A stretch of 64,000 nt of DNA, from IMG/VR virus record IMGVR_UViG_3300033121_001619, positions 1 through 64,000 of that record. One strand, written 5' to 3'. Under the pieces are notes generated by a model. It did not search any database and was not told the DNA's origin. It saw only the letters and a program-made list of their open reading frames with translations. Below are positions 11,723-55,078 of this stretch, piece after piece. Positions within the stretch are counted from its first letter, which is position 1, and the number at the start of each line of letters is the position of its first letter. The DNA comes from a virus. Its lineage: Duplodnaviria; Caudoviricetes. The translations under genes were made by a program, and so were the position numbers.

Positions 11723-12024
11723 CGACAGTCATCAACATCCGAGCGATCCATGATGTGCCCTACGTCTACATCGGGAGAGGATCGAAGTGGGGGAATCCCT
11801 ACACGCACCTCGACTCTCGCTATGTCGGTACCGTGAAAGTATCGACACGTGAGGAGGCAGTCGAGTCCTACGAGCGCTACGTCAAGTCCCGCCCCGATCT
11901 GATGGAAGCAGCACGCAAGGAATTGCGCGGCAAGGTACTTGGATGTTTCTGCAAACCCAAAGCGTGTCACGGCGACGTTTTGGCGCGAATAGCTGAGGAA
12001 GAAATCGATGGGCGTGATCAGTAA
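11719..12024 (+). CDS. DUF4326 protein
   Basis: VYIGRGSKWGNPY...ELRGKVLGCFCKPKACHGDVL. Confidence 0.9.
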   Translation: MTTVINIRAIHDVPYVYIGRGSKWGNPYTHLDSRYVGTVKVSTREEAVESYERYVKSRPDLMEAARKELRGKVLGCFCKPKACHGDVLARIAEEEIDGRDQ

Positions 12025-12889
12025 GATTGCATGGTGCGACGGTACGTTCAATCCCTGGATAGGCTGCGACAAGGTCTCTCCGGGATGCAAGAACTGCTAC
12101 GCCGAGAGGATCCAGGGATCATTTGGCGGTGACCTCTGGGGTCCTGGTTCTCGTCGATCCGTCACGTCGACGAAGAATTGGAATGACGTCCTTCGTGCGG
12201 ACAAGTTGACGACGCATCGTCGTCGCCTCTTCGTCGCGTCGTTGTCGGACGTCTTCGAAGATCGCGATGATCTCCACGTCCCGCGTCAGAAGCTGATCGA
12301 TCTCGTCGAGAAGACTATCAACACGGATTGGCTCTTCCTCACGAAGCGTCCGGAGAACGTACTGTCTCTCCTCGACGTCGATGGACCGGGCTGGGGGACG
12401 AGATCGTCTTTCCCCGATCACGTCTGGATCGGGACCACAGTCGAGGATCAGCGACGTTTGGACGAGAGATTGCCCATCCTCGTCCAGATACCGTCTCGTG
12501 TCAAATTCCTGTCGTGTGAGCCGCTCTTGGAGAGAGTCGTCCTAGGATCGCATGCGAGGAATGTGTCGTGGGTCATCGTCGGCGGAGAGTCCGGACGAGG
12601 CGCACGTCCCTTCTCGATGGAGTGGGCCAAATCTCTGCGAGACGAGTGCGCATGCGCCGGCGTGCCTTTCTTCTTCAAGCAGACAGGAGAGCGGGCGTTC
12701 GATGAAGCAGGTCGTCCTATGACAGTGAGAGGTGCAGGTTCGGATCCAGAAGATTGGCCCGAGTGGGCTAGAGAGGCTCGCAGTTTCCCGAGGTTACACG
12801 ACGTCAAATCGGAGAGCTCATCGAGGGTTAACCACGTACGACGTCTCTCCGATTTGACTTTCATACGACCTCGATCGCGAATATCTTGA
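12008..12889 (+). CDS. DUF5131 (phage Gp37/Gp68, radical-SAM-like) protein
   Basis: FNPWIGCDKVSPGCKNCYAE, LTKRPEN, FLSCEPLL, WVIVGGESG, FFFKQ. Confidence 0.92.
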   Translation: MGVISKIAWCDGTFNPWIGCDKVSPGCKNCYAERIQGSFGGDLWGPGSRRSVTSTKNWNDVLRADKLTTHRRRLFVASLSDVFEDRDDLHVPRQKLIDLVEKTINTDWLFLTKRPENVLSLLDVDGPGWGTRSSFPDHVWIGTTVEDQRRLDERLPILVQIPSRVKFLSCEPLLERVVLGSHARNVSWVIVGGESGRGARPFSMEWAKSLRDECACAGVPFFFKQTGERAFDEAGRPMTVRGAGSDPEDWPEWAREARSFPRLHDVKSESSSRVNHVRRLSDLTFIRPRSRIS

Positions 12890-13760
12890 TCTTGCCCAGA
12901 CCGACGACTTCCCTTTCCTCTTCGAATTCGTTGAAATCATCGATCTTGTAGAGGCCGCCAGGTCCGGAGACGAATGAGTCAGGGTTGTCCATGACGTTAG
13001 CGTGCATGATGATCGGCACTTCGGTATCGTCTTCGTAATCACCTCGTGCGAAACTTATCGCGACACGTCGATTCGTCGTCCAAGAAGACGAGTGTCCTGT
13101 CATAGGCTTGTAAGTCTTGGCGACTTTCACGATGTCCCCTGCTTTGAGGGACGACTTTCCAATCAGCTTTCGAATCCATGATTTGCTGACCCTCATTCCT
13201 CGATACACGTTCTTTGCCGACGGACTCTTCAGGACGTCATCGTATTCTCCAGTTGCCATGGCTTTCTTGAGATCGTCGGCTCCGGACGAACTCATGTGGA
13301 TATTGGCACTGAAATGTCGCCACAACTCTTTGCCCACGTCATGCTCAAGACTCGTGTCTGGCTCAGCTGTGAATCCTTTTTGGCCTAGCTGAGACGCTGA
13401 TCTGCCGTCGACGAATGCATAACGTCCGAAAGGTGCGTCATTGGAGCCGGGAAGTTTAGCGATGGTCGATGGTGCCATCGATGTCGCCTTCTTCAACCAC
13501 CTTCGGACGTCTTCGCCCTTCTTTGCACCGACATGCGGCATCAGAGCATACACGAGATCTTCCGGAGTGGACTGTCTTTTTTCGTCACGTCGATCGTATG
13601 TTCGAAAGAATTGATTGAAGAATGACTCTGGCCGAAATCTGGTTGGCTGATGACTAGACGGCACACGAGACAGGACTATCAGCGCATCGTTGACGCTTCC
13701 TTCGCATGCATCTACAAGGTCTTGGACTAGAGTCTCGAGACTCTCATCGCTCTTCATCAT
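12861..13760 (-). CDS. putative ADP-ribosyltransferase (R-S-E clade)
   Basis: C-terminal VYRGM, SSSWTT, FEEEREVV; GAGGAG SD before ATG 13760. Confidence 0.65.
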   Translation of the reverse strand: MMKSDESLETLVQDLVDACEGSVNDALIVLSRVPSSHQPTRFRPESFFNQFFRTYDRRDEKRQSTPEDLVYALMPHVGAKKGEDVRRWLKKATSMAPSTIAKLPGSNDAPFGRYAFVDGRSASQLGQKGFTAEPDTSLEHDVGKELWRHFSANIHMSSSGADDLKKAMATGEYDDVLKSPSAKNVYRGMRVSKSWIRKLIGKSSLKAGDIVKVAKTYKPMTGHSSSWTTNRRVAISFARGDYEDDTEVPIIMHANVMDNPDSFVSGPGGLYKIDDFNEFEEEREVVGLGKIKIFAIEVV

Positions 13761-13775
13761 CGTTGCTCGCTCCTC

Positions 13776-13804
13776 TTGAAAACTCTGACGAGACGACATA
13801 CAAT
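13776..13804 (+). promoter_or_regulatory. sigma70-type promoter of the Pth2/suppressor-tRNA operon
   Basis: TTGAAA(13776-81)-N17-TACAAT(13799-804); ATG 7 nt downstream implies a leaderless mRNA. Confidence 0.75.
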
Positions 13805-13811
13805 ATGTCAC

Positions 13812-13904
13812 ATGATGTTCTAACTGCCTCGTGGCCCTCCTGGGATATCGTTCGTCTCAAAGCGACGTCACAGGAGTCAATTGTCCATGAAGGAAAGTGA
13901 GTGA
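13812..13904 (+). CDS. leader peptide with in-frame UAA at codon 4: MMF*LPRGPPGISFVSKRRHRSQLSMKESE
   Basis: ATG ATG TTC TAA CTG CCT CGT GGC CCT CCT...; TGA 13902-04 ends 3 nt before the next ATG. Confidence 0.6.
13837..13876 (+). promoter_or_regulatory. leader RNA hairpin overlapping the Pro-Pro codons and sequestering CAGGAG
   Basis: CTCCTG/CAGGAG plus GATATCGTT/AGCGACGTC stem, loop CGTCTCAA. Confidence 0.6.
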
Positions 13905-13907
13905 GTC

Positions 13908-14315
13908 ATGAAGCGCATCTACGAAGAAGATCAGAAAGCAGTCTATGGAGCCTTGCGTGAGAAAGCTCGCAAGAGCCAATTGACGAGGTGGGAACACCTC
14001 TTGTACGCGTTCGTGCGAGGAAAGTCTCGCACTGAGGTGGAATCGCGAGTGTCTCACGCGACGGACGTGTTCACGAACAGATTCATTCAGAGCGCATATC
14101 GATCCACGAAGGCGTCCTGGTACTTCAAAACGTCGCTCGATCCCGTCAAGACCTACATCGACAACAATCGTCTCGCTTTCTGTGAGTGGCTATACGCCAA
14201 GGAAAAACCGCACGTGGTCTTTCCAGTCGAGGGCGCGGCGATCAAACGACGCGAGGAGTATCACAGGCGAAAGATCGAGAAATCGAACCTGAGCGAAAAC
14301 GAGGTCTCGCAATGA
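13908..14315 (+). CDS. hypothetical protein translationally coupled to the Pth2-like gene
   Basis: HLLYAFVRGK..EVE motif; TGA 14313-15 overlaps ATG 14312. Confidence 0.8.
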   Translation: MKRIYEEDQKAVYGALREKARKSQLTRWEHLLYAFVRGKSRTEVESRVSHATDVFTNRFIQSAYRSTKASWYFKTSLDPVKTYIDNNRLAFCEWLYAKEKPHVVFPVEGAAIKRREEYHRRKIEKSNLSENEVSQ

Positions 14316-14629
14316 CCTCGTAAGTAGAGAGGCTGTACGTGGTGATCGACTCTTCGATCGACAGGAGGAATTGGATTCCTCAAGTGGCACACGGTGTCGC
14401 CCAGTATTTCATCGATCATCCCGACGAAGCTCGTCGTTGGCACCAGAATGGAAACACAATCGTGTGCTTGTCGGCGACAGACGGTGATCACTTGCAGGAC
14501 ATCCTATCGAGATCGATTGGGTGCGTCTCGACGTTCAGTGAACCTGACATGGGCGACCGAATGACGGTCGTCGTGCTAGAAGACGTGAACGGAAGGCTCC
14601 TGAGAAAACTCAAGTTGATAACGCCTTGA
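14312..14629 (+). CDS. peptidyl-tRNA hydrolase 2 (Pth2)-like protein with in-frame UAA at codon 4
   Basis: MTS*VERLYVVID...QVAHG...W...TIVCL...FSEPDMGDRMTVV; SD GAGGT 14301-05 and ATGA coupling support start 14312; TAA at 14321-23. Confidence 0.75.
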
Positions 14630-14634
14630 CATAC

Positions 14635-14659
14635 GTCGGACGGGTGTAACTCGTCCGAC
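14635..14659 (+). other. strong hairpin immediately 5' of the tRNA
   Basis: GTCGGACG-GGTGTAACT-CGTCCGAC. Confidence 0.7.
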
Positions 14660-14661
14660 AC

Positions 14662-14733
14662 GTCTCCCTGGTCCAATGGCAGGGCACGCGACTTTAATTC
14701 GCAGTGATGTCGGTTCGAATCCGACGGGAGGCA
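14662..14733 (+). tRNA. ochre suppressor tRNA, anticodon UUA
   Basis: acceptor GTCTCCC/GGGAGGC, D stem GTCC/GGGC, anticodon arm CGCGA-CTTTAAT-TCGCA (TTA at 14694-96), T arm GTCGG-TTCGAAT-CCGAC, discriminator A; CCA not encoded. Confidence 0.9.
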
Positions 14734-14775
14734 CAAGTGATGAAAAGATCGACGTCGCCGTTGTAGGATTGTATC

Positions 14776-19757: not shown

Positions 19758-20534
19758 ATGAGATTCCCAGAAAGTCTACCGGACAGGATGTCGTTCATAC
19801 TCGAGTGCATCAAGTCGGGCGACTTCGAGGCTTCTTGGACGCGGGTCTCTTACGAGAGAAATGGAAAATACATCGAAGTCGATGTCATGTCCGATGCCCT
19901 CAAGATCGACGGCGTCAGAGTGAACGTCGACGCCACCACGAGTCAGACGGTCGCTGACATGATAGACGCTGTCATGCCGACTAGTCTTCTCGCCGATGTG
20001 ATCCACGGAAAATCGACTCGACGAATTCCTCCGAGACCGCGACCGATCACGTCATCGGCGGCGGCGATGATCGATCAGAGTCGTCTCATAGACGACGATC
20101 TGTCGACCCAGACGTCGCCTGGGATCATCTCGACCGCCGGCAAGCACTGGATCGTCGACGGTCGATTGTCGTCTGGCAAGGTCGCGTGCAACTACGGGTG
20201 GCACTTCGACCCGGGGAAGTACAGGGGAGGAGGATCTCCTGCCGATTGCGGTGATCTGGCCGGTTTTGGCGTGAAGGTCATCCAGAGCCCCGGGACGTTT
20301 CACGATAGATTTCACACCGACTACTCGCAGATATGCCAACTCGTGGCAAGGGTCGCACTCGTCGATGGAGTGCCCATGAGGATCGACGAGGCCCTAGAAG
20401 ACCCTCAGCATGAACGTCTGTTCAGCGCATACGGTACGTCGAGAATCTCGAGACAACCCGGGGTTGCCCGTTATTCGGGACCGATCATTCTGTTTCCGAC
20501 GACGATCGTCGCGTCCTTACCAGGACTCGTCTGA
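19758..20534 (+). CDS. hypothetical enzyme-like protein
   Basis: GKHW, NYGWH, IQ..G..H...H.DYSQ His-rich motifs. Confidence 0.7.
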   Translation: MRFPESLPDRMSFILECIKSGDFEASWTRVSYERNGKYIEVDVMSDALKIDGVRVNVDATTSQTVADMIDAVMPTSLLADVIHGKSTRRIPPRPRPITSSAAAMIDQSRLIDDDLSTQTSPGIISTAGKHWIVDGRLSSGKVACNYGWHFDPGKYRGGGSPADCGDLAGFGVKVIQSPGTFHDRFHTDYSQICQLVARVALVDGVPMRIDEALEDPQHERLFSAYGTSRISRQPGVARYSGPIILFPTTIVASLPGLV

Positions 20535-28400: not shown

Positions 28401-29372
28401 TCACGTGAGATTCAGACCGGTGGAGTCTCCTCCCCAGGGAATGACGACTTGACCGATCGACATGAATGAATTCGTACCATCGCCCGGGTAACCTTCGCCA
28501 GAGACGACTGACGCACTACCGAACCAGATGTCCTGTAGCGTACCGTGACGTCCTCTGACACCCGTCGTCGTGGAAGCGAATGCTATCGGGAACATGGGCC
28601 ACGTCCCGTCGACCTCATTGGCGATGTTACCGAACGTCACGTCATTGACAGCCATGGCGGTGGTGGTGCCCTCTGACAGGACCTGAAGAGTCGCAGTAGT
28701 TCCGGCGATCTTGGCTCGTCCTAGGGTGGAGAGGTTGCTAGGCGACATCGTAAGACCGGTGGATGAAGCGTATATGAGGCTGAAAGATCCGCTCACCCAC
28801 CCGCTCGTGGAGTTGGTAGGCTTATCGAGGATCCATAGACCGGTCACGCCCCCCGCGGCACACGTTATGACACGCGTGCACTGTCCGTCAGTGCTGACGG
28901 CGACTGAGTAACGATGTTGCGCGTCGCCGCTGTTCGTTCCGAACGACGTGGAGGAGATGAGGGCGATCTCGTCGCCGGCGTACGGTCTATTCGTCAAATT
29001 CCCGCCGGAGAAAGATGCCGAAGGAGAGCAGATGATCGACCAGTTGGGCGTACCGGAGTTCAGGATGTCGAAGCAAATCTCATAGTTGTTTGCAATGCCC
29101 GTTTGCCTGAGGACTATCCACGAGTGAGCAACTCCGGGAGCTCCACCAACGATGTCTGCGTCGGTGACCCACCTGTCGACGCCATCTCCCACGCTTCCCG
29201 TATTGACACCGTTCGACGAATAACGAACGACCCACGGGCTCGACGCCACTCCGCTCAAGGCGTCCTTGATCGTGCGAATGAGTCTCTTTCCATTCGCCAA
29301 GACGGACCCCTGTGCTGCGTTCGTGTTATTCCTGCTGTACTGCCATGTCTTGGATGGTGTGGGTAGCGCCAT
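28401..29372 (-). CDS. putative virion/tail protein
   Basis: S/T/G-rich beta protein in structural module. Confidence 0.7.
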   Translation of the reverse strand: MALPTPSKTWQYSRNNTNAAQGSVLANGKRLIRTIKDALSGVASSPWVVRYSSNGVNTGSVGDGVDRWVTDADIVGGAPGVAHSWIVLRQTGIANNYEICFDILNSGTPNWSIICSPSASFSGGNLTNRPYAGDEIALISSTSFGTNSGDAQHRYSVAVSTDGQCTRVITCAAGGVTGLWILDKPTNSTSGWVSGSFSLIYASSTGLTMSPSNLSTLGRAKIAGTTATLQVLSEGTTTAMAVNDVTFGNIANEVDGTWPMFPIAFASTTTGVRGRHGTLQDIWFGSASVVSGEGYPGDGTNSFMSIGQVVIPWGGDSTGLNLT

Positions 29373-29390
29373 GAATTCCTCAACGACTAC

Positions 29391-31985
29391 TTATAAGGTC
29401 CACTTCAGACTCATGTACCCGGCGTAACACAGGATTTGATCGGTCGATAGTCCACCCGTTCGCTTCAATTGGACCTTGTACGAGTTCGATCCTGTCAAGA
29501 CGTCCGGATCGGCACCTATCGTGAGCGACGACGACAGGATCTCCACGTCGGAGAGACCCGCAGAAGTCCCCGTGATCAGAGAGCTATTGATCTCCACGCC
29601 GCTGTCTTTACTCAAGAGACGTATCGATGCCGTGACTGAAGCCGTCAGTATCTGCAGGGCGACGACGTACGACAATGTCTTAGTCGATCCTGTCAGGTTA
29701 GGCGACTCGTTCCTCGGATCGAAAGGTATGATGCCGATGGTCGTCCACGAATCGCTGGTCGTCGTCTGAAGTCCGGACACTCCGTAGAAGTTTCTCGTCA
29801 TCGGAAGGAGCGTATTCGTGGTCGCCAGTGACGATCCGGACACCGTCAACGAACCTGACACCACGACATCTCCACCGAAGACGGTCTTCCTGGCGCTACT
29901 TCCTGCTAGCCCCACGGTGCCGGACACGAACACGAAGTTGTCAGTCCCCATTTGATAGGACGACGTGATGACGGCGAGGTCGGCGCCAGCGATGACGAAG
30001 TCGCCGGCGAGCTCTAGACCGCCCTGCATCCTGCTCCTGACGGTGGAGTGACCGATGGTGATGTATGACGCTCCCTGGCTGGAAGCTCCGATCTGGATGA
30101 CTCCTGGTGACGATCCGGAGCCGGCGGTGATGGTCACGTTACCATCGGACCCAGTTCCGTGACCGATGCCTGTCCGTATGACGACGTCGCCTCCGGATCC
30201 ATCGGTAAGCTTGCCGTCGCCCGACGTTATGATGACGCTACCTCCGACTTGGCTGTGCGAGCCTGTCGAGTGAGTGCCAGCCGTCACGAGGACGTTCCCG
30301 CCCAACGTCGACGTTTGCTTCACTATCTTGAGATTGCCGGCATTCTCCGACCTGAGGTCGATCGTCGACCCGAGTATCGTGACGTCTCCTCGTGGTCCAA
30401 ACGTGAACGTATTGTTGTTGAAGGATCCGAAACCGGCCTCGATATTGATGTTTCCCGGAGTACCCGCGGCGGCAGTGTCGTTTCTGTCTCCAGCGTTTCC
30501 ACCGTAGATGTTGACGGTACCGCCCGATCCGGCCTTGCCCGCCGAGGCAGCTGACCCGCCAGATCCGGCCGACAACGTCATATCACCGCCGGTGCCTCCG
30601 GCTCCGGCTGTACCCGTCGATGCACTGCCTCCCGATCCAGCAGTCACCGAGACGTATCCGCCGGATCCAGCAGTGCCGTCCTCACAGTCACCACCGTTTG
30701 CTGAGAGGATCTCGACGTATCCGCCGGATCCTCCGTCGGCCACGGATCCCGTGACAGCAACGGAGGATCCTCCTCTAAGTGAGAGACCTCCGCCCGACGC
30801 TCCATAGTCGGTCGGACCAAGATTGATGGTTCCTGTCCCTGGAGACGCCGTCATCCTCAGCTCCGGGCCGGATGAGGACGATGCCAGACCGCGTATCTCC
30901 CTGCCCGTCACGACGAGGACCCCACCGCCGGAAGGAGTCTCTCCCACGGCTGACGCGAAGGGAGGATAGTTCGATCCTATCTTGATCGATCCGCTTGATA
31001 CGACGTCTCCCCCGAAAACTGCCATTCTACCAGAAGAGGAACTGACGTCTCCTACCGTGCCAGAGACGTAGAAGTAGACGTTCGATCCGATCTGATACGA
31101 CGACGTTAGACCAGATAGACCGACGAGAGCCAATGAACCGGTCCCGTATACCGATCCAGCGAGAGAGCTGCCAAAGTAATTCTCGGATCCGCTGCCCCCG
31201 CCGCCCGTCGACGATATTGTGATCTGACCGTTCGACGCGCTAGTGATGGTGACGTTGCTACCGGCGACCATGAACGACGTTCCGTCGGATAGTCTAGTGA
31301 GAGATCCGGAGATGCCCCCGACCGCTGTGATGCTTCCACTGCTCTTCAGTGACCCGCCGAATACCGACGTCGCTCCGGAGGAAGTCGATCCGGACACGAA
31401 GAAGACTACGTCGGTTCCGATCTCGTAGGAGTAACGACCCTCGGGATCGAAGGAGGCCGCGTAATCTGTCTTGGCTCTCTTTGACGGACTGTCCGTCGAC
31501 ACGAAGATGGCGCTTCCTTGACCGAACGTCTTTCTCCACGTGAGAGACGTCGATCCCACCGTGATTGGATCCGACGTGGTGAGGAGGAATCCCCAGCCTC
31601 CGTTCGACGTTCCTGTCTCGACGGCCACGGCGGCCATCGACGATAGCATCCCTTGGACGGCATCGTCCGATCTCGTCATGGAATACGACGACACCAGGCT
31701 GTTCCACACGTAGTCGTAGATGCCATTGTCAATCGACGACGATTGACCAAATAGAAGGACTCTGACCGACTCAGACGTCGAGAGGCTCACTCCGTCGACC
31801 GTGAGAGATACTCCGCCTGACAACGGCACGTGCGTCGTCGAAGCGACTACGACTGAATCCTTCCAGTCGAGCCGAAGTATGTCCTCCGTCGTCGCCACGG
31901 ATCCCATGACTGTCTCGATCCGAGGCGTAGGCCTCGTGTACGAGTAGACCTTGCGGTACCGCTGCGCGTCTCTTGTTCTAGTCAT
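29391..31985 (-). CDS. tail fibre-like protein
   Basis: WKDSVVVAST...VDGV...RVLL..Q..NGIY N-terminal domain; Gly-rich GG.V.I.AG repeats. Confidence 0.75.
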   Translation of the reverse strand: MTRTRDAQRYRKVYSYTRPTPRIETVMGSVATTEDILRLDWKDSVVVASTTHVPLSGGVSLTVDGVSLSTSESVRVLLFGQSSSIDNGIYDYVWNSLVSSYSMTRSDDAVQGMLSSMAAVAVETGTSNGGWGFLLTTSDPITVGSTSLTWRKTFGQGSAIFVSTDSPSKRAKTDYAASFDPEGRYSYEIGTDVVFFVSGSTSSGATSVFGGSLKSSGSITAVGGISGSLTRLSDGTSFMVAGSNVTITSASNGQITISSTGGGGSGSENYFGSSLAGSVYGTGSLALVGLSGLTSSYQIGSNVYFYVSGTVGDVSSSSGRMAVFGGDVVSSGSIKIGSNYPPFASAVGETPSGGGVLVVTGREIRGLASSSSGPELRMTASPGTGTINLGPTDYGASGGGLSLRGGSSVAVTGSVADGGSGGYVEILSANGGDCEDGTAGSGGYVSVTAGSGGSASTGTAGAGGTGGDMTLSAGSGGSAASAGKAGSGGTVNIYGGNAGDRNDTAAAGTPGNINIEAGFGSFNNNTFTFGPRGDVTILGSTIDLRSENAGNLKIVKQTSTLGGNVLVTAGTHSTGSHSQVGGSVIITSGDGKLTDGSGGDVVIRTGIGHGTGSDGNVTITAGSGSSPGVIQIGASSQGASYITIGHSTVRSRMQGGLELAGDFVIAGADLAVITSSYQMGTDNFVFVSGTVGLAGSSARKTVFGGDVVVSGSLTVSGSSLATTNTLLPMTRNFYGVSGLQTTTSDSWTTIGIIPFDPRNESPNLTGSTKTLSYVVALQILTASVTASIRLLSKDSGVEINSSLITGTSAGLSDVEILSSSLTIGADPDVLTGSNSYKVQLKRTGGLSTDQILCYAGYMSLKWTL

Positions 31986-32070
31986 GGATCGATCTATTCC
32001 TCTTGAACGTCCGGATGGACACCGCATCTAAATAGAGGGTGAGGTCACGTCACCTCAGGAGGTATCTAGA

Positions 32071-33241: not shown

Positions 33242-35650
33242 TCGTAAGCGATTTCTTGCCTTGCCGTCGAAATATGGCATGGAAGAAGTGGCCTCGGTGC
33301 TGACGTTACAAGAGTCAGTGGACGTCGGACTCACTGACTCCACGTAGATGTGTCCTATCCCACGATCGTCCTTCGTGTAAGTCCTACGAACGAACTGGAC
33401 GTTCACGGGTGACGAACCGACGTCCTTCACCGACTTGATCACGGGATTGTCGACGGTCGTCGTCCGAGTACGAATGGCGTCTCGTGAAAACACCTCGTTG
33501 CCGACGATCGTCGATTCCACGTTGATGAACTTCGTGTACTGACGCTGTTCGAGCATGTCGCGGAAGTGTCCGAAGTGATCACGTCTGAATACTGCGCGCG
33601 TGTGATGAGGAAGTCCGCTCACGAGCCCGTGCTTCCATCCCCTGATGATGGGTGCCACTCCGTAGTGGTGCGATCGATACAATTCAGAAGATCCTGACGT
33701 CTGAGGCGTGTAGGACCCATACGTCGGGTTGAATCTCGTGTCCACGATGCGAGTCCTGAACGTCGGATAGTTGTTCCCTCCTATCCTAGAAGTCCTGTCG
33801 ATATCGAACGACGCAGACGTGTATTGGACTATCTCGACGTCGTCGATGGCAGCCAACGATCCCGTCGGAGAAGACGTCGATGATCCTAGCCTGAAATCGA
33901 ACGTCACGCGATACTCGCCAGGATCGTATGGATAAGGGTGGGGAACTGACGAGGCACCCACATAGGGATTCTTTCCAACGCCTGACACTCGCGTGTCGTA
34001 TTGAGACATGGTCACGTAAGTGTCGCCCAATACCACCTCGATCGATTGGATCGAGTCGACGCCACTCGAAGATGCCTCACCGCTTGGGCGTCCAGGAAGA
34101 CCGGAGAAAAACACGTACAGACCTGACGTCGGTGAACCCACGACGGCTCTTTTGTATCTCAAGATCCACGGATAAGACGACGTCACGTCCATCACGCAGA
34201 TGGACGACGACGTAGCGTCACCTCCGAAAGTCGCGATGGTGTCGGAGACCAGTACCCAGCTATTCGATGGAGACGAGGACGACACCCAGTAGACGCCGGG
34301 AGCCTTGACGCTCGACCCGGATATCGTGTTGTAGGTGACGGATGATCCGCTACCGAAGTAATTGGTGGAGTCGAGATACGTCGACGTCCTGCACGCTGCC
34401 CTCCATGGATTTTGACCCACGTTGGGGGACATCGACCAGCTGACTTCCAGCCAAGACGACGCCAACGTATCGCCGAAATATGAGGCACTTTGCACCATGT
34501 GATACGACGCCGACGAGGCAGTCTCATTCACGGTGAAGCTTTGCGTGTATGCCGTCACACCTGCGGAATCGTCGAACAAGTACCTGTCGTGACAGACCGT
34601 GTTGAGATCTCCGAATCCATACAGGAACTTGAACAAGTCGACATCCGTCATTGATCCCGTGATCTTTTCCGATCCGACGTCGGAGAAGCCCAGGTCGACG
34701 AGGTAACCGTGACTATTCAACCTGTCTAGCCTGACGTCGGCGGGCACGACGTTGCCGTGCGTGACATCGTCATCGAAACGTGACGATGTCAAGTTTCGAG
34801 GCTTGTGAAGAGTCAGCATCACGGCCTCTCCGCTCGATCCTGTCGCAGAGTACGTGGATCGATATCCATTGCTTCCGGTGCCGAGGAGGTCGTAGGGAAT
34901 CCTTCCAGGCAGGATGGGAATTAGGCCTTTGGTCGGACGGGGCTTCTTGGACAGGATTGGTGATTCCACGCCATCGACGCTAACGTTTGCTTGAATGACG
35001 GTCGTTGCATTGAACGTCATGTTGGCTAGACGATTGACGGAGGAGTAACGAGCCTCGAAGGGATACGACCACGTCCACGTGTCGTCGTTCAGCGGATCGA
35101 TGTCAAAACCTTCTCCTGACCGGTCCCTTTGGGATCCGTTGAAGGTGACGAAAGCGACATTCCCTGTGACGACGTTGCGAAACGGGCTGAGGAAGGTGTT
35201 GGAAGCGTTGGACGGCGTCCACAAGTGTCGTCCTTGTGATTTGAGACAGTCCTTGTAGTCGGGGACGCAAGAGTCGTAGTACCTCTCGGTCTCATCAAAA
35301 CACTGAACGTTCCTGTAGTTCGTGTGCGACACCCTCTCGTCCCACGGGACTAGACGATATGACAGGTGTGGAACCTGCGTAACGTCAGACGATCCATACG
35401 TGTCGTCGAGAATGGGCGCAGTCGAAGAGTAATACTTGCTGAAAGCTCTCCCACGACTCGGCACCGACGTCGAGAATATGGGTCTCTTACTGCCGACTTT
35501 GAACGACGGCAAGACGACGAGCATCGTCCCAGTGACGTGGTCGTCAATCATCTTCCCGTAGAACGAGGCGTCGTAGTCGACGTCGTACTGATCAAGGACT
35601 GGATCGTCTCCAATGACGTCCTTGACGACTTCGGTGAAAATTGGCGTCAA
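33170..35650 (-). CDS. virion structural protein (tail/baseplate associated)
   Basis: 826 aa, S/T/G-rich, FRRDHFGHFRDMLEQR; coupled operon. Confidence 0.7.
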   Translation of the reverse strand: MTPIFTEVVKDVIGDDPVLDQYDVDYDASFYGKMIDDHVTGTMLVVLPSFKVGSKRPIFSTSVPSRGRAFSKYYSSTAPILDDTYGSSDVTQVPHLSYRLVPWDERVSHTNYRNVQCFDETERYYDSCVPDYKDCLKSQGRHLWTPSNASNTFLSPFRNVVTGNVAFVTFNGSQRDRSGEGFDIDPLNDDTWTWSYPFEARYSSVNRLANMTFNATTVIQANVSVDGVESPILSKKPRPTKGLIPILPGRIPYDLLGTGSNGYRSTYSATGSSGEAVMLTLHKPRNLTSSRFDDDVTHGNVVPADVRLDRLNSHGYLVDLGFSDVGSEKITGSMTDVDLFKFLYGFGDLNTVCHDRYLFDDSAGVTAYTQSFTVNETASSASYHMVQSASYFGDTLASSWLEVSWSMSPNVGQNPWRAACRTSTYLDSTNYFGSGSSVTYNTISGSSVKAPGVYWVSSSSPSNSWVLVSDTIATFGGDATSSSICVMDVTSSYPWILRYKRAVVGSPTSGLYVFFSGLPGRPSGEASSSGVDSIQSIEVVLGDTYVTMSQYDTRVSGVGKNPYVGASSVPHPYPYDPGEYRVTFDFRLGSSTSSPTGSLAAIDDVEIVQYTSASFDIDRTSRIGGNNYPTFRTRIVDTRFNPTYGSYTPQTSGSSELYRSHHYGVAPIIRGWKHGLVSGLPHHTRAVFRRDHFGHFRDMLEQRQYTKFINVESTIVGNEVFSRDAIRTRTTTVDNPVIKSVKDVGSSPVNVQFVRRTYTKDDRGIGHIYVESVSPTSTDSCNVSTEATSSMPYFDGKARNRLRLVRVLTVRDRSSCVIGEKHRKVE

Positions 35651-49275: not shown

Positions 49276-50752
49276 GTAACTTCACCAGGACCTTGCTGGC
49301 GTACTTCCCTTGATTCTTTCCGAGTTGGGCCGACGCGTTATTTGCCGTTCCTTTCTTGACCGACCCTGCGAACGAACCTCCCATCGTCGTGACGAGTTGT
49401 CCTCCGACGACGGTACCGTCCTCCGTCGTCACGGGCTGATCCGTGCACACGACGCCCTTGTCAGCATCGGGTCCCCCTAGACGAACGTATCCCTTTTCGC
49501 TCGGCGTGAAGACGATGTCTCCGTTCCTCTTTATCGTGATCGAAGCGAAGCGAGTTGGATCCGTCGACTCGTCTTTCCTGCCCGTGAAACCTTCCTCGGT
49601 GGACTCGTCGTAGTCGGTGACGATGAACGATATGTCGGATCGTGCTATGATTCGCACCTTGTCTGACTTCAGGACGATCCCAGCGTCTCCGTCGGCTGAG
49701 TCCGTCACATCGGGAAACGATATTTCGAACGACCCGTCGACCTTCATTCGCTGTGAGACTAGAAGACGACTCCTGTCATTCTTGAAATCTGGGTCGCCCT
49801 CCCTGGGCGCTAGAGCATCAGGCGACTTGTCCAATTCTCTCTTGAGAACGGTTCCCTTCTTGGATTTGGACGCGTCGACGAAGCTCGTCGTATCTGCTGC
49901 CCTTCCAGCCGTGTCAGCAGTGTAACCTCGGCCGGCCACGATATCGATCGACCCGGCGCGGCCTTGTTCCGTCAATGGATCGATATCGATCGATCCGGAT
50001 CTAGCGAAGCCAAGACTGATCAGTGTGTTGTTCGATCCTTCGAGGACCACGTCTGGAGACCTCTTGCGAAATCTCGGGACCGGTTCGTAGACGTGTCTCT
50101 TCTTCGCGGTCGTCTCTTGGACTATGGACTCGAATATGTCATCCTCATGACCGACGAGGATGCTTCCGTCTCTGACGGCAACGCGCTCTCCGTCGACTGT
50201 CGTGACAGGAGTGTTTCTCAACTCGAACCACGGGTCGGACCCATCTGACTTTGACTTGGAACCGGGATGGAACGAAGGTTCGGATGACCTACCGGGATGC
50301 GAGTGATTGACGTCGTCACTAGTGTGTGGTTCGACGATCCTGCACACCCAATACGCCACGTCGACGGTCCGTGCCGCTGGATTTTCCACGAACACCCAGA
50401 CCGCCTCTCCCGGTTTTGCCGGAAGAGAGAGACTAGATGGGAAAAATGGGAACACGAACATGGGCGGTGAATCGTCTCCGACTCTCTGACCCACGATCGT
50501 GTTTCGTGGAAGAACATTGACCAGATCCATGTTCGATACGCCCAACCTCTGCCACTCCTCGGCTAGCTCTGCGCGAGAGTCCGGACTCATGTTGGGATCG
50601 TCGACAACGTCGATGACGATCATTCTGACGAAGTGCGGTTTTTGAGGAGGGACGTACGTCCTTCCTGCGTTTTCCACGTTTAGTCGACCCTCGACGAAGT
50701 CGACGAGGTTGTCCTGAGTCGTTCGTCTATAGTCAGACAAGCGTAACCTCAC
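49193..50752 (-). CDS. baseplate hub/spike (gp5-like) protein
   Basis: PFFP..LSLPAKPGEAVWV...YWVCR, DVVLEGSNNTLI, IVLKSDKVRIIAR. Confidence 0.7.
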   Translation of the reverse strand: MRLRLSDYRRTTQDNLVDFVEGRLNVENAGRTYVPPQKPHFVRMIVIDVVDDPNMSPDSRAELAEEWQRLGVSNMDLVNVLPRNTIVGQRVGDDSPPMFVFPFFPSSLSLPAKPGEAVWVFVENPAARTVDVAYWVCRIVEPHTSDDVNHSHPGRSSEPSFHPGSKSKSDGSDPWFELRNTPVTTVDGERVAVRDGSILVGHEDDIFESIVQETTAKKRHVYEPVPRFRKRSPDVVLEGSNNTLISLGFARSGSIDIDPLTEQGRAGSIDIVAGRGYTADTAGRAADTTSFVDASKSKKGTVLKRELDKSPDALAPREGDPDFKNDRSRLLVSQRMKVDGSFEISFPDVTDSADGDAGIVLKSDKVRIIARSDISFIVTDYDESTEEGFTGRKDESTDPTRFASITIKRNGDIVFTPSEKGYVRLGGPDADKGVVCTDQPVTTEDGTVVGGQLVTTMGGSFAGSVKKGTANNASAQLGKNQGKYASKVLVKLHAQSASGGRPGWQWMYGPCRHTHTPWR

Positions 50753-53378: not shown

Positions 53379-54868
53379 CAGACTGTCCTCACGACAAAAC
53401 GTCCGTCGGTCCTGTAGTCGGCGATGGTCTTCTCTAGCGTCGTGTCCCAATCCCTCACGACGTTGTCGATGTTGTACTCTCTATGGGCACGCTCCATTCC
53501 CTTGCGTCCTAGCTCAGCCCTCTTGTCCGGACCCATCTCGTACATGTCCATGATGGCATGAGCTACGGTCTCGTTACTCACGTTATCCTCGTAGATGTAC
53601 GGCACGCTGTGATTTCCGATGAGCGACTTCACCTCGGGATTCAACCCTATACCGAACTGCTCTCCGGAGACAGGATCTTCGACTTGATGCGTCAAGCCCC
53701 CAGTCTTGAGGGCGATGACCGGACGTCCACACATCAGCGTTTCGAGGATGGGTAGTCCGAATCCCTCAGCGTTGCTCCTGTTGATGGTACAGTCGGCGAT
53801 GTTGTAGAGGACCCTCATGTTCTCGAATTGGATCCTGTCCTTGGAGAAAACGACACTCTCGCGAACACCTATGAGGTCGACTATCCTGTGAAGGTCCGTC
53901 CCCTCTGGGTCCATCGGATCGGTGTGCATCACGAGAGTCGCTTTCGTGTGTCCGTGCTTCTTCTGAAGCTGGTCAATGAACATCTTCCACGACACGATGA
54001 CGTCGGGCGTCATCTTGCGTCGAGCGTTGCGAGAGACGTAAAGACACGTGAAGTGATCGAGACGTTCACGACCCAACAGCTTTTCCTTGATGGACCGCGT
54101 CTCATCAGGGTTCATGGGATAATACAGCTCTTTTGGGACAGCGTGTGGGACGTAGTTCGTCTTCTCGGGGAACTTTTCCTTCAACATGTTGTAGGTCGGC
54201 ATGTTGATGCAGTTCAGTAGATCAGTCGCCTCATAGAAAGGTCGATTGAATTCGGGCCAGGGATAGTTGTCCCATAGATGCCAGTAGACGATCGGACACA
54301 CCTGGTGGATCTCGTCCTCCATCTGCCAGACCCACACGAAGAAGCGAGGGTCGGTGAACAACATCAATGCATCCGGCTGGACTTGGGCTATCGTTTTCCT
54401 GAGGAGGTCCCTGTCACCGAAACCATCGGTGGGTTTTATGATGAAGTCTTCGCTGACGACCTTCGTGTCGTAGTTGTCGTGCTTCATCGCGCCGCCGAAA
54501 CATCTGAATCGATACTTTCCGGTCGCGATCAAGCCGTTGATCAACCAACGTGCTTGCGTCGCGACACCAGAAGTGCTCACTGAGTTGGACTATATCATCA
54601 CCTACGAGAGGTGCTGGGCGCTGTCGGATCATCGCCATGTCGAAGACGAAGGCTGACCGTAGTCTCTGAACCTTCTCCAGGGTTTCCCCACAGGAGCTCG
54701 GCTGCTGATTATCAGCTGGCTAGGATTTTTCGGCCTTCACGTCTACCGTTTCCAGTTGCGTTGTGGCATCCTCGCCCCGACTTCCCAGCAATTCACCCAG
54801 TTTTACATCCGCTGAGCTGTGGTCGTTCACGGATGATCTGAAAGCATCAGTATCGTCTTTTTCCTCAT
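53378..54868 (-). CDS. glycosyltransferase (GT4), two exons: 54868-54829 and 54579-53378
   Basis: spliced N-terminus MRKKTILMLSDHPLSTSGVATQ; RNARRK, EGFGLPILE; 40+1202 nt = 414 codons. Confidence 0.88.
54580..54828 (-). ncRNA. group I self-splicing intron, 249 nt, no internal ORF
   Basis: P AATTGCTGGGAA, Q AATCAGCAGCC, R GTTCAGAGACTA, S GATATAGTCC; 5' exon ends in U, intron ends in G; IGS GCTCA-GCGGATG pairs with both exons. Confidence 0.92.
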
Positions 54869-55078
54869 GTTTTCCCAACCATCCTCTCAAGCGGGAATTC
54901 CACGAACCGGTCCTGTAGTCCGTCTCCCAAATGATATGGACATTATATCCATGGCTGGTCTGCTCGTTAACTCTACTTTCGTCGTAAGCCCATATCTTGC
55001 TAGCGGACATTTTTTGATGTGATGAAAAATGTGTCGGACACTTCGGTGGATTGCAATGCCAATAGTCACCGGTGAAAA
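54866..55078 (-). pseudogene. truncated Vsr/DUF559-like (homing) endonuclease remnant
   Basis: GDYWHCNP...IW.YD..R....GYNVHIIWETD; no credible start; more AT-rich than flanks. Confidence 0.7.

Follow-up and report, generated by a model that had tools for sequence, protein, structure and literature searches.

A real, intact phage tRNA of the ochre type lies at 14662-14733, at the end of a small operon in which two reading frames are each interrupted by a TAA codon cognate to the tRNA. The tRNA probably works as an ochre suppressor whose selected targets are these two UAA codons of its own operon, with no recoding of the genome as a whole. Within the window (the whole stretch of DNA that was analysed, 64,000 nucleotides), the locus comprises the following features:

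13776-13804, plus strand: sigma-70-like promoter, TTGAAA-17-TACAAT, 10/12 matches
13812-13904, plus strand: gated leader ORF, ATG ATG TTC TAA CTG CCT CGT GGC CCT CCT ... TGA (13902-13904)
13908-14315, plus strand: companion gene of 135 aa taken from the ORF list, function not assigned
14312-14629, plus strand: Pth2-fold gene; its ATG at 14312 overlaps the upstream TGA (ATGA), and the ORF caller places the start at GTG 14339
14635-14659, plus strand: hairpin of 11 bp with a 3-nt loop, located past the Pth2 stop codon and ahead of the tRNA, not followed by a T run
14662-14733, plus strand: tRNA with anticodon UUA (reads UAA, possibly UAG), short variable loop, A73, CCA not encoded

A single virus record of 126,319 bp, with 55% G+C, contains the window as its first half. 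The phage is T4-like, with a gp23-type capsid protein, a gp20-type portal containing inteins, and baseplate proteins, and its coding coverage under the standard code is 0.917 (about 92%). It encodes its own tmRNA (genome 119726-120104, plus strand; L004:13407-13785; Rfam 64.1 bits). Directly after the tmRNA, ARAGORN makes a weak call of a "tRNA-Thr(cgt)" with mismatched stems (genome 120126-120200, plus strand), which Rfam does not report at the gathering score. A group I intron (Rfam RF00028, 53.3 bits) at window positions 54567-54899 on the minus strand adjoins glycosyltransferase genes. No RF-1 domain indicative of a phage release factor occurs in the fragment, which is estimated to be about 38% complete.

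The window contains a single ARAGORN tRNA call (14662-14734, plus strand, anticodon tta), and the Rfam model RF00005 matches 14662-14733 end to end (model positions 1-71) with 51.8 bits against a gathering score of 29 (E 7e-10 in a local search, 7e-8 over 144 kb). The intact cloverleaf proposed in the initial annotation is therefore borne out by both programs. It follows the layout of a class I elongator tRNA, with one mismatch, C27/A43, at the top of the anticodon stem; this C-A pair had been pointed out from the sequence, as had the G-U pairs in the acceptor and D stems, which are U2-G71 and U11-G24. The conserved positions are canonical (U8, A14, G18G19, U33, A37 and the T loop TTCGAAT) and the variable loop has 5 nt. 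A73 is present and no CCA is encoded, again as annotated, with CAAG directly 3' of the gene. The anticodon loop, CTTTAAT, presents the anticodon 5'-UUA-3', which pairs with UAA and could also read UAG by wobble. A tRNA on the minus strand, with anticodon UAA, is ruled out, as the tRNA model fits the plus strand alone and the minus-strand T loop is non-canonical.

An assembly error in the anticodon, named in the initial annotation as the circumstance that would undo its reading, is excluded. In an alignment of the stretch from promoter to tRNA (13770-14740, 971 bp) with its counterparts in five more independent metagenome assemblies (L117-L121), all six sequences are the same in the leader, at both TAA codons, in the hairpin and in the tRNA with its anticodon, and the 11 polymorphic sites fall in the 135-aa gene (10 sites) and in the Pth2 frame (1 site).

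The operon begins with a promoter whose -10 hexamer lies 7 nt before the leader ATG. Two other phages have a similar arrangement: TTGACA-17-TACTAT, 7 nt, then ATG in L069, and TTGACT-17-TACGGT, 6 nt, then ATG in L092. The spacing of only 6-7 nt in all three suggests that the leader mRNA is leaderless or nearly so. In the window phage the leader frame reads M-M-F, is interrupted by its gate (TAA 13821-13823) and continues with L P R G P P (13824-13841). The RGPP codons (13830-13841) lie 67 nt upstream of the 135-aa gene, which starts 3 nt past the leader TGA. The corresponding leaders are ATG CTC TAG CTG CCA AGA GGC CCG CCC in L069 and M-F-W-TAG-LPPVRGPP in L092, so that the peptide behind the gate is conserved in three phages. 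The codons differ by synonymous changes, including CGT versus AGA for arginine, and the persistence of LPRGPP despite such changes argues for selection at the protein level behind a stop codon. As in arrest-peptide leaders, a small ORF with RGPP precedes a gene, here with the motif placed behind the stop. Each of the three leaders has a minimum-energy fold in which a downstream Shine-Dalgarno element (AGGAG/GGAGG) pairs with the Pro-Pro codons, and the flanks of this pairing co-vary (CCUCCUG:CAGGAG in the window phage, CCUCCG:CGGAGG in L092); relative to shuffled sequences, the folds have only a modest advantage (z -1.7 to -2.0). A scan for a fixed ATG-NNN-stop leader pattern returned the L069/L075 phage and two chance hits only.

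The 135-aa protein shows weak homology to its positional counterparts in L069 (E 5e-4) and G002/L087 (E 0.003). The gene that follows it begins ATG ACC TCG TAA GTA GAG AGG CTG TAC GTG GTG, i.e., M-T-S-TAA-V-E-R-L-Y-V-V, with the second gate at TAA 14321-14323. Its homologs begin M(K/D/E)RLYVV, and the equivalent ERLYVV here sits between the TAA and GTG 14339, where the ORF caller starts a 96-aa version of the protein. Its family comprises about 200 small proteins; of the 45 members aligned, 41 match PF01981 (PTH2; best 9e-12). The window's own protein gives no Pfam match at E 0.01, and a sequence search of the PDB with the 96-aa protein finds no significant match. The protein was also modelled with AlphaFold from ATG 14312 with a leucine placeholder at the TAA. 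The model has a pLDDT of 95.9, with strand 1 at residues 7-13 and the GTG start at residue 10, and its top Foldseek matches are Pth2 structures (2zv3, 1q7s (Bit1), 3erj, 1wn2 and 1xty) with probability 1.00 and TM 0.70-0.77. By this model, the gene encodes a Pth2 fold and a predicted peptidyl-tRNA-hydrolase-like protein, and a product started at GTG would lose residues 7-9 of the seven-residue core strand. Within the Pth2 frame the six assemblies differ at one site only, in codon 8 upstream of the GTG, where the alternatives CTG and TTG both encode leucine. Both TAA codons of the operon thus look like readthrough sites, each cognate to the tRNA and each followed by a conserved peptide.

Between the Pth2 stop codon and the tRNA, the hairpin at 14635-14659 ends 2 nt before the tRNA start, in agreement with the initial annotation, which had placed a hairpin against the 5' end of the tRNA. 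Its predicted folding energy is -18.7 kcal/mol (z -4.65), which none of 200 shuffles equals. The counterpart in L069 lies 3 nt upstream of the tRNA (-21.4 kcal/mol, z -5.1), and that in L092 is terminator-like, is followed by a T run and lies 4 nt upstream. A hairpin thus occurs 2-4 nt before the suppressor tRNA in all three phages, with unrelated sequences. Unlike the clear terminators of this phage, e.g., at 115743, the window hairpin has no T run. It may cap and protect the 3' end of the mRNA once RNase P releases the tRNA, and it may also set the share of transcription that reaches the tRNA.

Single-protein scans of IMG/VR return no close relatives of either operon protein, and a scan for related loci based on DUF5131 recovers distant loci only. 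The L069 phage (= L075/G001, 110,758 bp) is syntenic, with the DUF5131 gene, leader, companion gene, Pth2 gene, hairpin and tRNA. Both of its gates are TAG, its tRNA has the anticodon CUA, and the Pth2 strand GKLYIVV lies behind the TAG. On the 168-kb contig L092, the Pth2 frame starts M-T-TAG-PHRDKLYVV and a CUA tRNA follows 30 nt after the gene. L078 and L089 each carry a TAG-gated Pth2 gene with a CUA tRNA, while in L076, L077, L088 and L090 the TAG gate is present on contigs that do not reach far enough for a tRNA to be seen. Across the family, 12 of 117 members have a called start inside strand 1. All eight of these with readable DNA have a TAG gate (ATG, 1-3 codons, in-frame TAG), and in every N-truncated case read the called start is preceded, in frame, by the conserved (K/R)LY(V/I)V; two full-length Pth2 controls have no gate. 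A CUA tRNA is present on each of the four TAG-gated contigs long enough to show one. The window locus is the only ochre case among the loci examined, and both of its gates are TAA. Altogether, 8 of 8 readable gates match the anticodon of the neighboring tRNA (two in the window, two in L069, two in L092, and one each in L078 and L089). Gate codon and anticodon appear to covary, which is strong support and not proof, as the lineages are few, not fully independent and dominated by amber.

Some relatives (G002/L087, Catera and Myrna) carry an ungated Pth2-like gene, so gating is optional. L087 (G002:C1:4247-7561), whose capsid protein is 63% identical to that of the window phage, has such an ungated gene with GTGA start coupling. 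About 1 kb downstream of it, on the reverse strand at 2803-2876, lies an odd tRNA labelled "Stop|Ile" by ARAGORN, with an anticodon loop of 6 or 8 bases that contains UUA.

From the parts described, their conservation and the match of each gate to the anticodon, we infer a switch that entails co-transcription, charging of the tRNA, ribosome stalling, unmasking of a binding site and a physiological purpose. Transcription of the operon would start at the promoter (13776-13804), and the tRNA would be cut from the 3' end of the transcript, gain its CCA and be charged by a host enzyme. Without active tRNA, the leaderless mini-ORF would end after Met-Met-Phe and the Pth2-like frame after Met-Thr-Ser. 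With active tRNA, readthrough of the leader would carry the ribosome into Leu-Pro-Arg-Gly-Pro-Pro, a strong arrest motif, and the stalled ribosome would cover the CCU CCU codons that otherwise pair with the downstream AGGAG element. The freed AGGAG would let ribosomes translate the 135-aa gene, and suppression of the second UAA would yield the full-length Pth2-fold enzyme with its first beta-strand complete. The outcome would be a steep switch that ties a peptidyl-tRNA-hydrolase-like output to the level of stop readthrough in the infected cell. The favored purpose is to link a rescue-type hydrolase to this level, because the phage also encodes a tmRNA; a negative feedback in which the enzyme acts on the suppressor tRNA is equally plausible. 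If active, the ochre suppressor would in addition lengthen the 12-14 phage proteins whose genes close with TAA. Under a reading with TTA as an additional stop (see below), the 138 ORFs end in TGA (82), TAG (22), TTA (22) and TAA (12), and because TAA is the rarest terminator such collateral readthrough would be limited.

The tRNA could alternatively be a general anti-host suppressor, which reads UAA and UAG stops of the host (and some of the phage), disturbs protein synthesis and loads the ribosome-rescue pathways, the TAA codons of its own operon being secondary or incidental. The tmRNA and the Pth2-fold gene would then be a rescue toolkit able to cope with readthrough products, and the prevalence of TGA and TTA among the phage terminators fits this idea. 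It is nevertheless unlikely as the whole explanation, as it accounts neither for the conserved peptides behind both TAA codons nor for the occurrence of TAG at both gates where the tRNA is CUA. It is compatible with the gate model, and general host-directed suppression may coexist with the switch.

The gates themselves could be incidental, the MMF-stop and MTS-stop frames being coupling ORFs or minigenes, with Pth2 translation starting at GTG 14339 and the tRNA serving an unrelated role. GTG 14339 is preceded, 6 nt upstream, by a good GAGAGG element, so that an N-truncated protein could be made without readthrough. Gene callers pick the inner start in many family members, and the members in cultured mycobacteriophages, annotated as peptidyl tRNA hydrolase, sit in tRNA arrays without any gate. 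Against this stand the in-frame (K/R)LY(V/I)V motif upstream of the called start in all such cases, the damage to the core strand in the truncated product, and a stop type that tracks the anticodon, which together leave this explanation little chance.

A further possibility concerns the origin of the tRNA. The only significant relatives of its scaffold in the phage collection are short-arm "tRNA-Leu" genes with UAA and CAA anticodons in KVP40-type T4-like vibriophages (82.5% identity over positions 8-62, E 3e-5). The two types share the D arm GGTCCAAT(T)GGCAG(A)GGCA, A15/U48 and A73, and both come from T4-like phages. They differ in the anticodon loop (CTTAAAA there, CTTTAAT in the window tRNA), in the D loop, where the window tRNA lacks one base on either side of GG, and in unrelated acceptor stems; moreover, the KVP40 genes belong to a tRNA array and have no gated operon. 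The two annotated tRNA-Leu genes of Vibrio phage KVP40 itself (L080:1494-1570 and 1687-1763) are without the long variable arm usual for bacterial tRNA-Leu. When the genomes of 185,579 species were scanned for the D arm, only one of the 15 matches was a tRNA (a tRNA-Gly). The D arm is thus nearly absent from cellular tRNAs, and the scaffold is not a common cellular one.

These relatives, and the near absence of TTA from gene bodies, would fit a code-change relic, i.e., a former UUA-reading Leu-type tRNA whose anticodon drifted from A35 to U and which is now functionless. This is highly improbable for a tRNA with an intact cloverleaf scoring 51.8 bits, invariant in six assemblies while the neighboring gene varies, and with cognate gates in its operon. 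A shared origin and a present function are compatible. In a joint claim that is possible yet improbable, the tRNA would be a recycled T4-type short-arm tRNA-Leu(UAA) with A35 changed to U, still charged with leucine and now the key to the Pth2 switch, the lineage having turned UUA from leucine into a stop and thereby freed the tRNA. If so, the locus would be a molecular fossil joining a TTA stop to a UAA-reading tRNA, and it would show that a sense-to-stop change can free a tRNA for a new role.

By the rules known from E. coli, leucine identity depends on A73 and the A15-U48 tertiary pair, while the anticodon is not needed and is not read by LeuRS; bacterial tRNA-Leu usually has a long variable arm. 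The window tRNA has A73, A15 and U48, with a variable loop of only 5 nt. Since LeuRS ignores the anticodon and the nearest scaffolds are Leu-type, charging with leucine is a reasonable guess, held tentatively; lysine and glutamine, the candidates of the initial annotation, are each less likely. Between phages that share this module, the scaffolds of the suppressor tRNAs are unrelated, and for this reason the inserted residue is probably not critical.

Stop-codon use bears on the proposal that TAA is reassigned throughout the genome. Such reassignment, to which the cognate suppressor tRNA would point by analogy with TAG- and TGA-recoded phages (bioRxiv 10.1101/2021.08.26.457843), is effectively refuted for the 126-kb fragment, as coding coverage drops (0.917 to 0.901) when TAA is read as sense, TAA joins just one large ORF pair, which ends in TTA TAA, and beyond the other genes closed by TAA the frame continues for 1-98 codons that do not look coding; the remaining ~60% of the genome could hold TAA-interrupted genes. 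TAA closes 12-14 genes, and the comparison with recoding phages drawn in the initial annotation is accordingly not upheld. Nor did stop-codon usage reveal the additional UAA-interrupted genes for which a search had been proposed, as no conserved gene in the 126-kb fragment is interrupted by TAA. The large pair consists of an 878-aa and a 323-aa ORF in the same frame, 18 nt apart (28401-32027, minus strand), for which no Pfam family linking the two was matched. It was rejected as a readthrough fusion: the first ORF ends in TTA TAA, a double stop under the four-stop reading.

TTA itself seems to behave as a fourth stop that ends about one gene in six. The 33,676 codons of long ORFs include just 20 in-frame TTA, compared with 173 for the next rarest codon, and 9 of the 20 fall within the last 12 codons. 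Coding coverage is not reduced when TTA is counted as a stop, whereas it drops with any other rare codon. TTA often stands directly before the next start or overlaps it (TTATG), and the tag frame of the tmRNA reads ...APLALAA followed by TTA, where the tmRNA of the related phage L008 has TGA at exactly the same position.

Examples of TTA as an apparent stop: window 20517-20519; 29394-29396, 33245-33247 and 49277-49279 (minus strand); genome 91678-91680 and 94152-94154

The T4-type portal gene (genome 103141-108171, plus strand; L003:7141-12171), which contains intein and HNH domains, reads TTA at codon 124, with GAGGTG and an ATG in the same frame behind it; this arrangement suggests a separate upstream gene split from the portal gene by TTA alone. 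Under the standard code, the DUF5131 gene (12008-12889, plus strand) overlaps a convergent gene (12861-13811, minus strand) by 29 nt, and ending it at the in-frame TTA 12794-12796 abolishes the overlap. No description of TTA as a phage stop codon was found in the literature, and a phage with an apparent TTA stop is a good system for studying how phages rewire termination.

The preferred reading, a suppressor matched to the gates of its own operon, can be compared with several known systems. In E. coli, ochre suppressors are laboratory mutants derived from tRNA-Lys (supG), tRNA-Gln (supB) and tRNA-Tyr (supC). They share with the window tRNA a UUA anticodon that differs from a sense anticodon by a single base, and the expected reading of UAA and, more weakly, of UAG. 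In contrast to these mutant cellular tRNAs, the window tRNA is natural and conserved, and its scaffold is found only in phages.

Intact "orphan" suppressor tRNAs occur in many large phages that otherwise use the usual stops, cultured ones among them. Phage XacN1 has two CUA tRNAs, and in silico readthrough of all 18 of its amber stops gave no target (PMC5852040), while phage G has a reported tRNA Sup:UUA, with the same anticodon as here (PMC12484599). Whereas no target was identified in these phages, the window tRNA has two cognate stops in its own operon, and the locus gives orphan phage suppressors a concrete candidate target in the form of anticodon-matched stops that head that operon. In the stop-recoded phages (crAss-like, Lak and related), recoding has been described for TAG and TGA only (bioRxiv 10.1101/2021.08.26.457843). 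As proposed here, a phage tRNA overrides the host stop, and control of expression by readthrough has been suggested for these phages as well. There, however, the reassigned codon lies inside many genes, whereas in the window phage TAA is a normal terminator with two candidate gates. Together with its amber counterparts, the ochre locus amounts to a natural swap experiment, in which a UAA reader goes with TAA locks and a UAG reader with TAG locks.

The leader finds its closest parallels among the RAPP/RGPP arrest peptides (ApdA, ApdP, ApcA, and SecM with RAGP; PMC7897499, PMC10951233, PMC12992588). Of the RAPP-like motifs, RGPP arrests ribosomes most robustly, and it tolerates a varied and short N-terminal context (PMC12992588). 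No description of a stop-gated RGPP leader, or of a stop-gated Pth2 gene, matched to a phage tRNA was found in the literature. If the proposed switch is true, it would be a form of gene control without a prior description found, in which a trans-acting tRNA is the inducer and an arrest peptide the actuator, and it might be used as an orthogonal switch. Like the known peptides, the leader is a small upstream ORF with the motif, whose codons can pair with the downstream ribosome-binding site. The known arrest peptides, by contrast, are always translated and their stall is relieved by secretion or membrane insertion, whereas in the window phage the motif lies behind a stop codon, the input would be readthrough by a trans-acting tRNA, and the nascent chain would have only about 10 residues.
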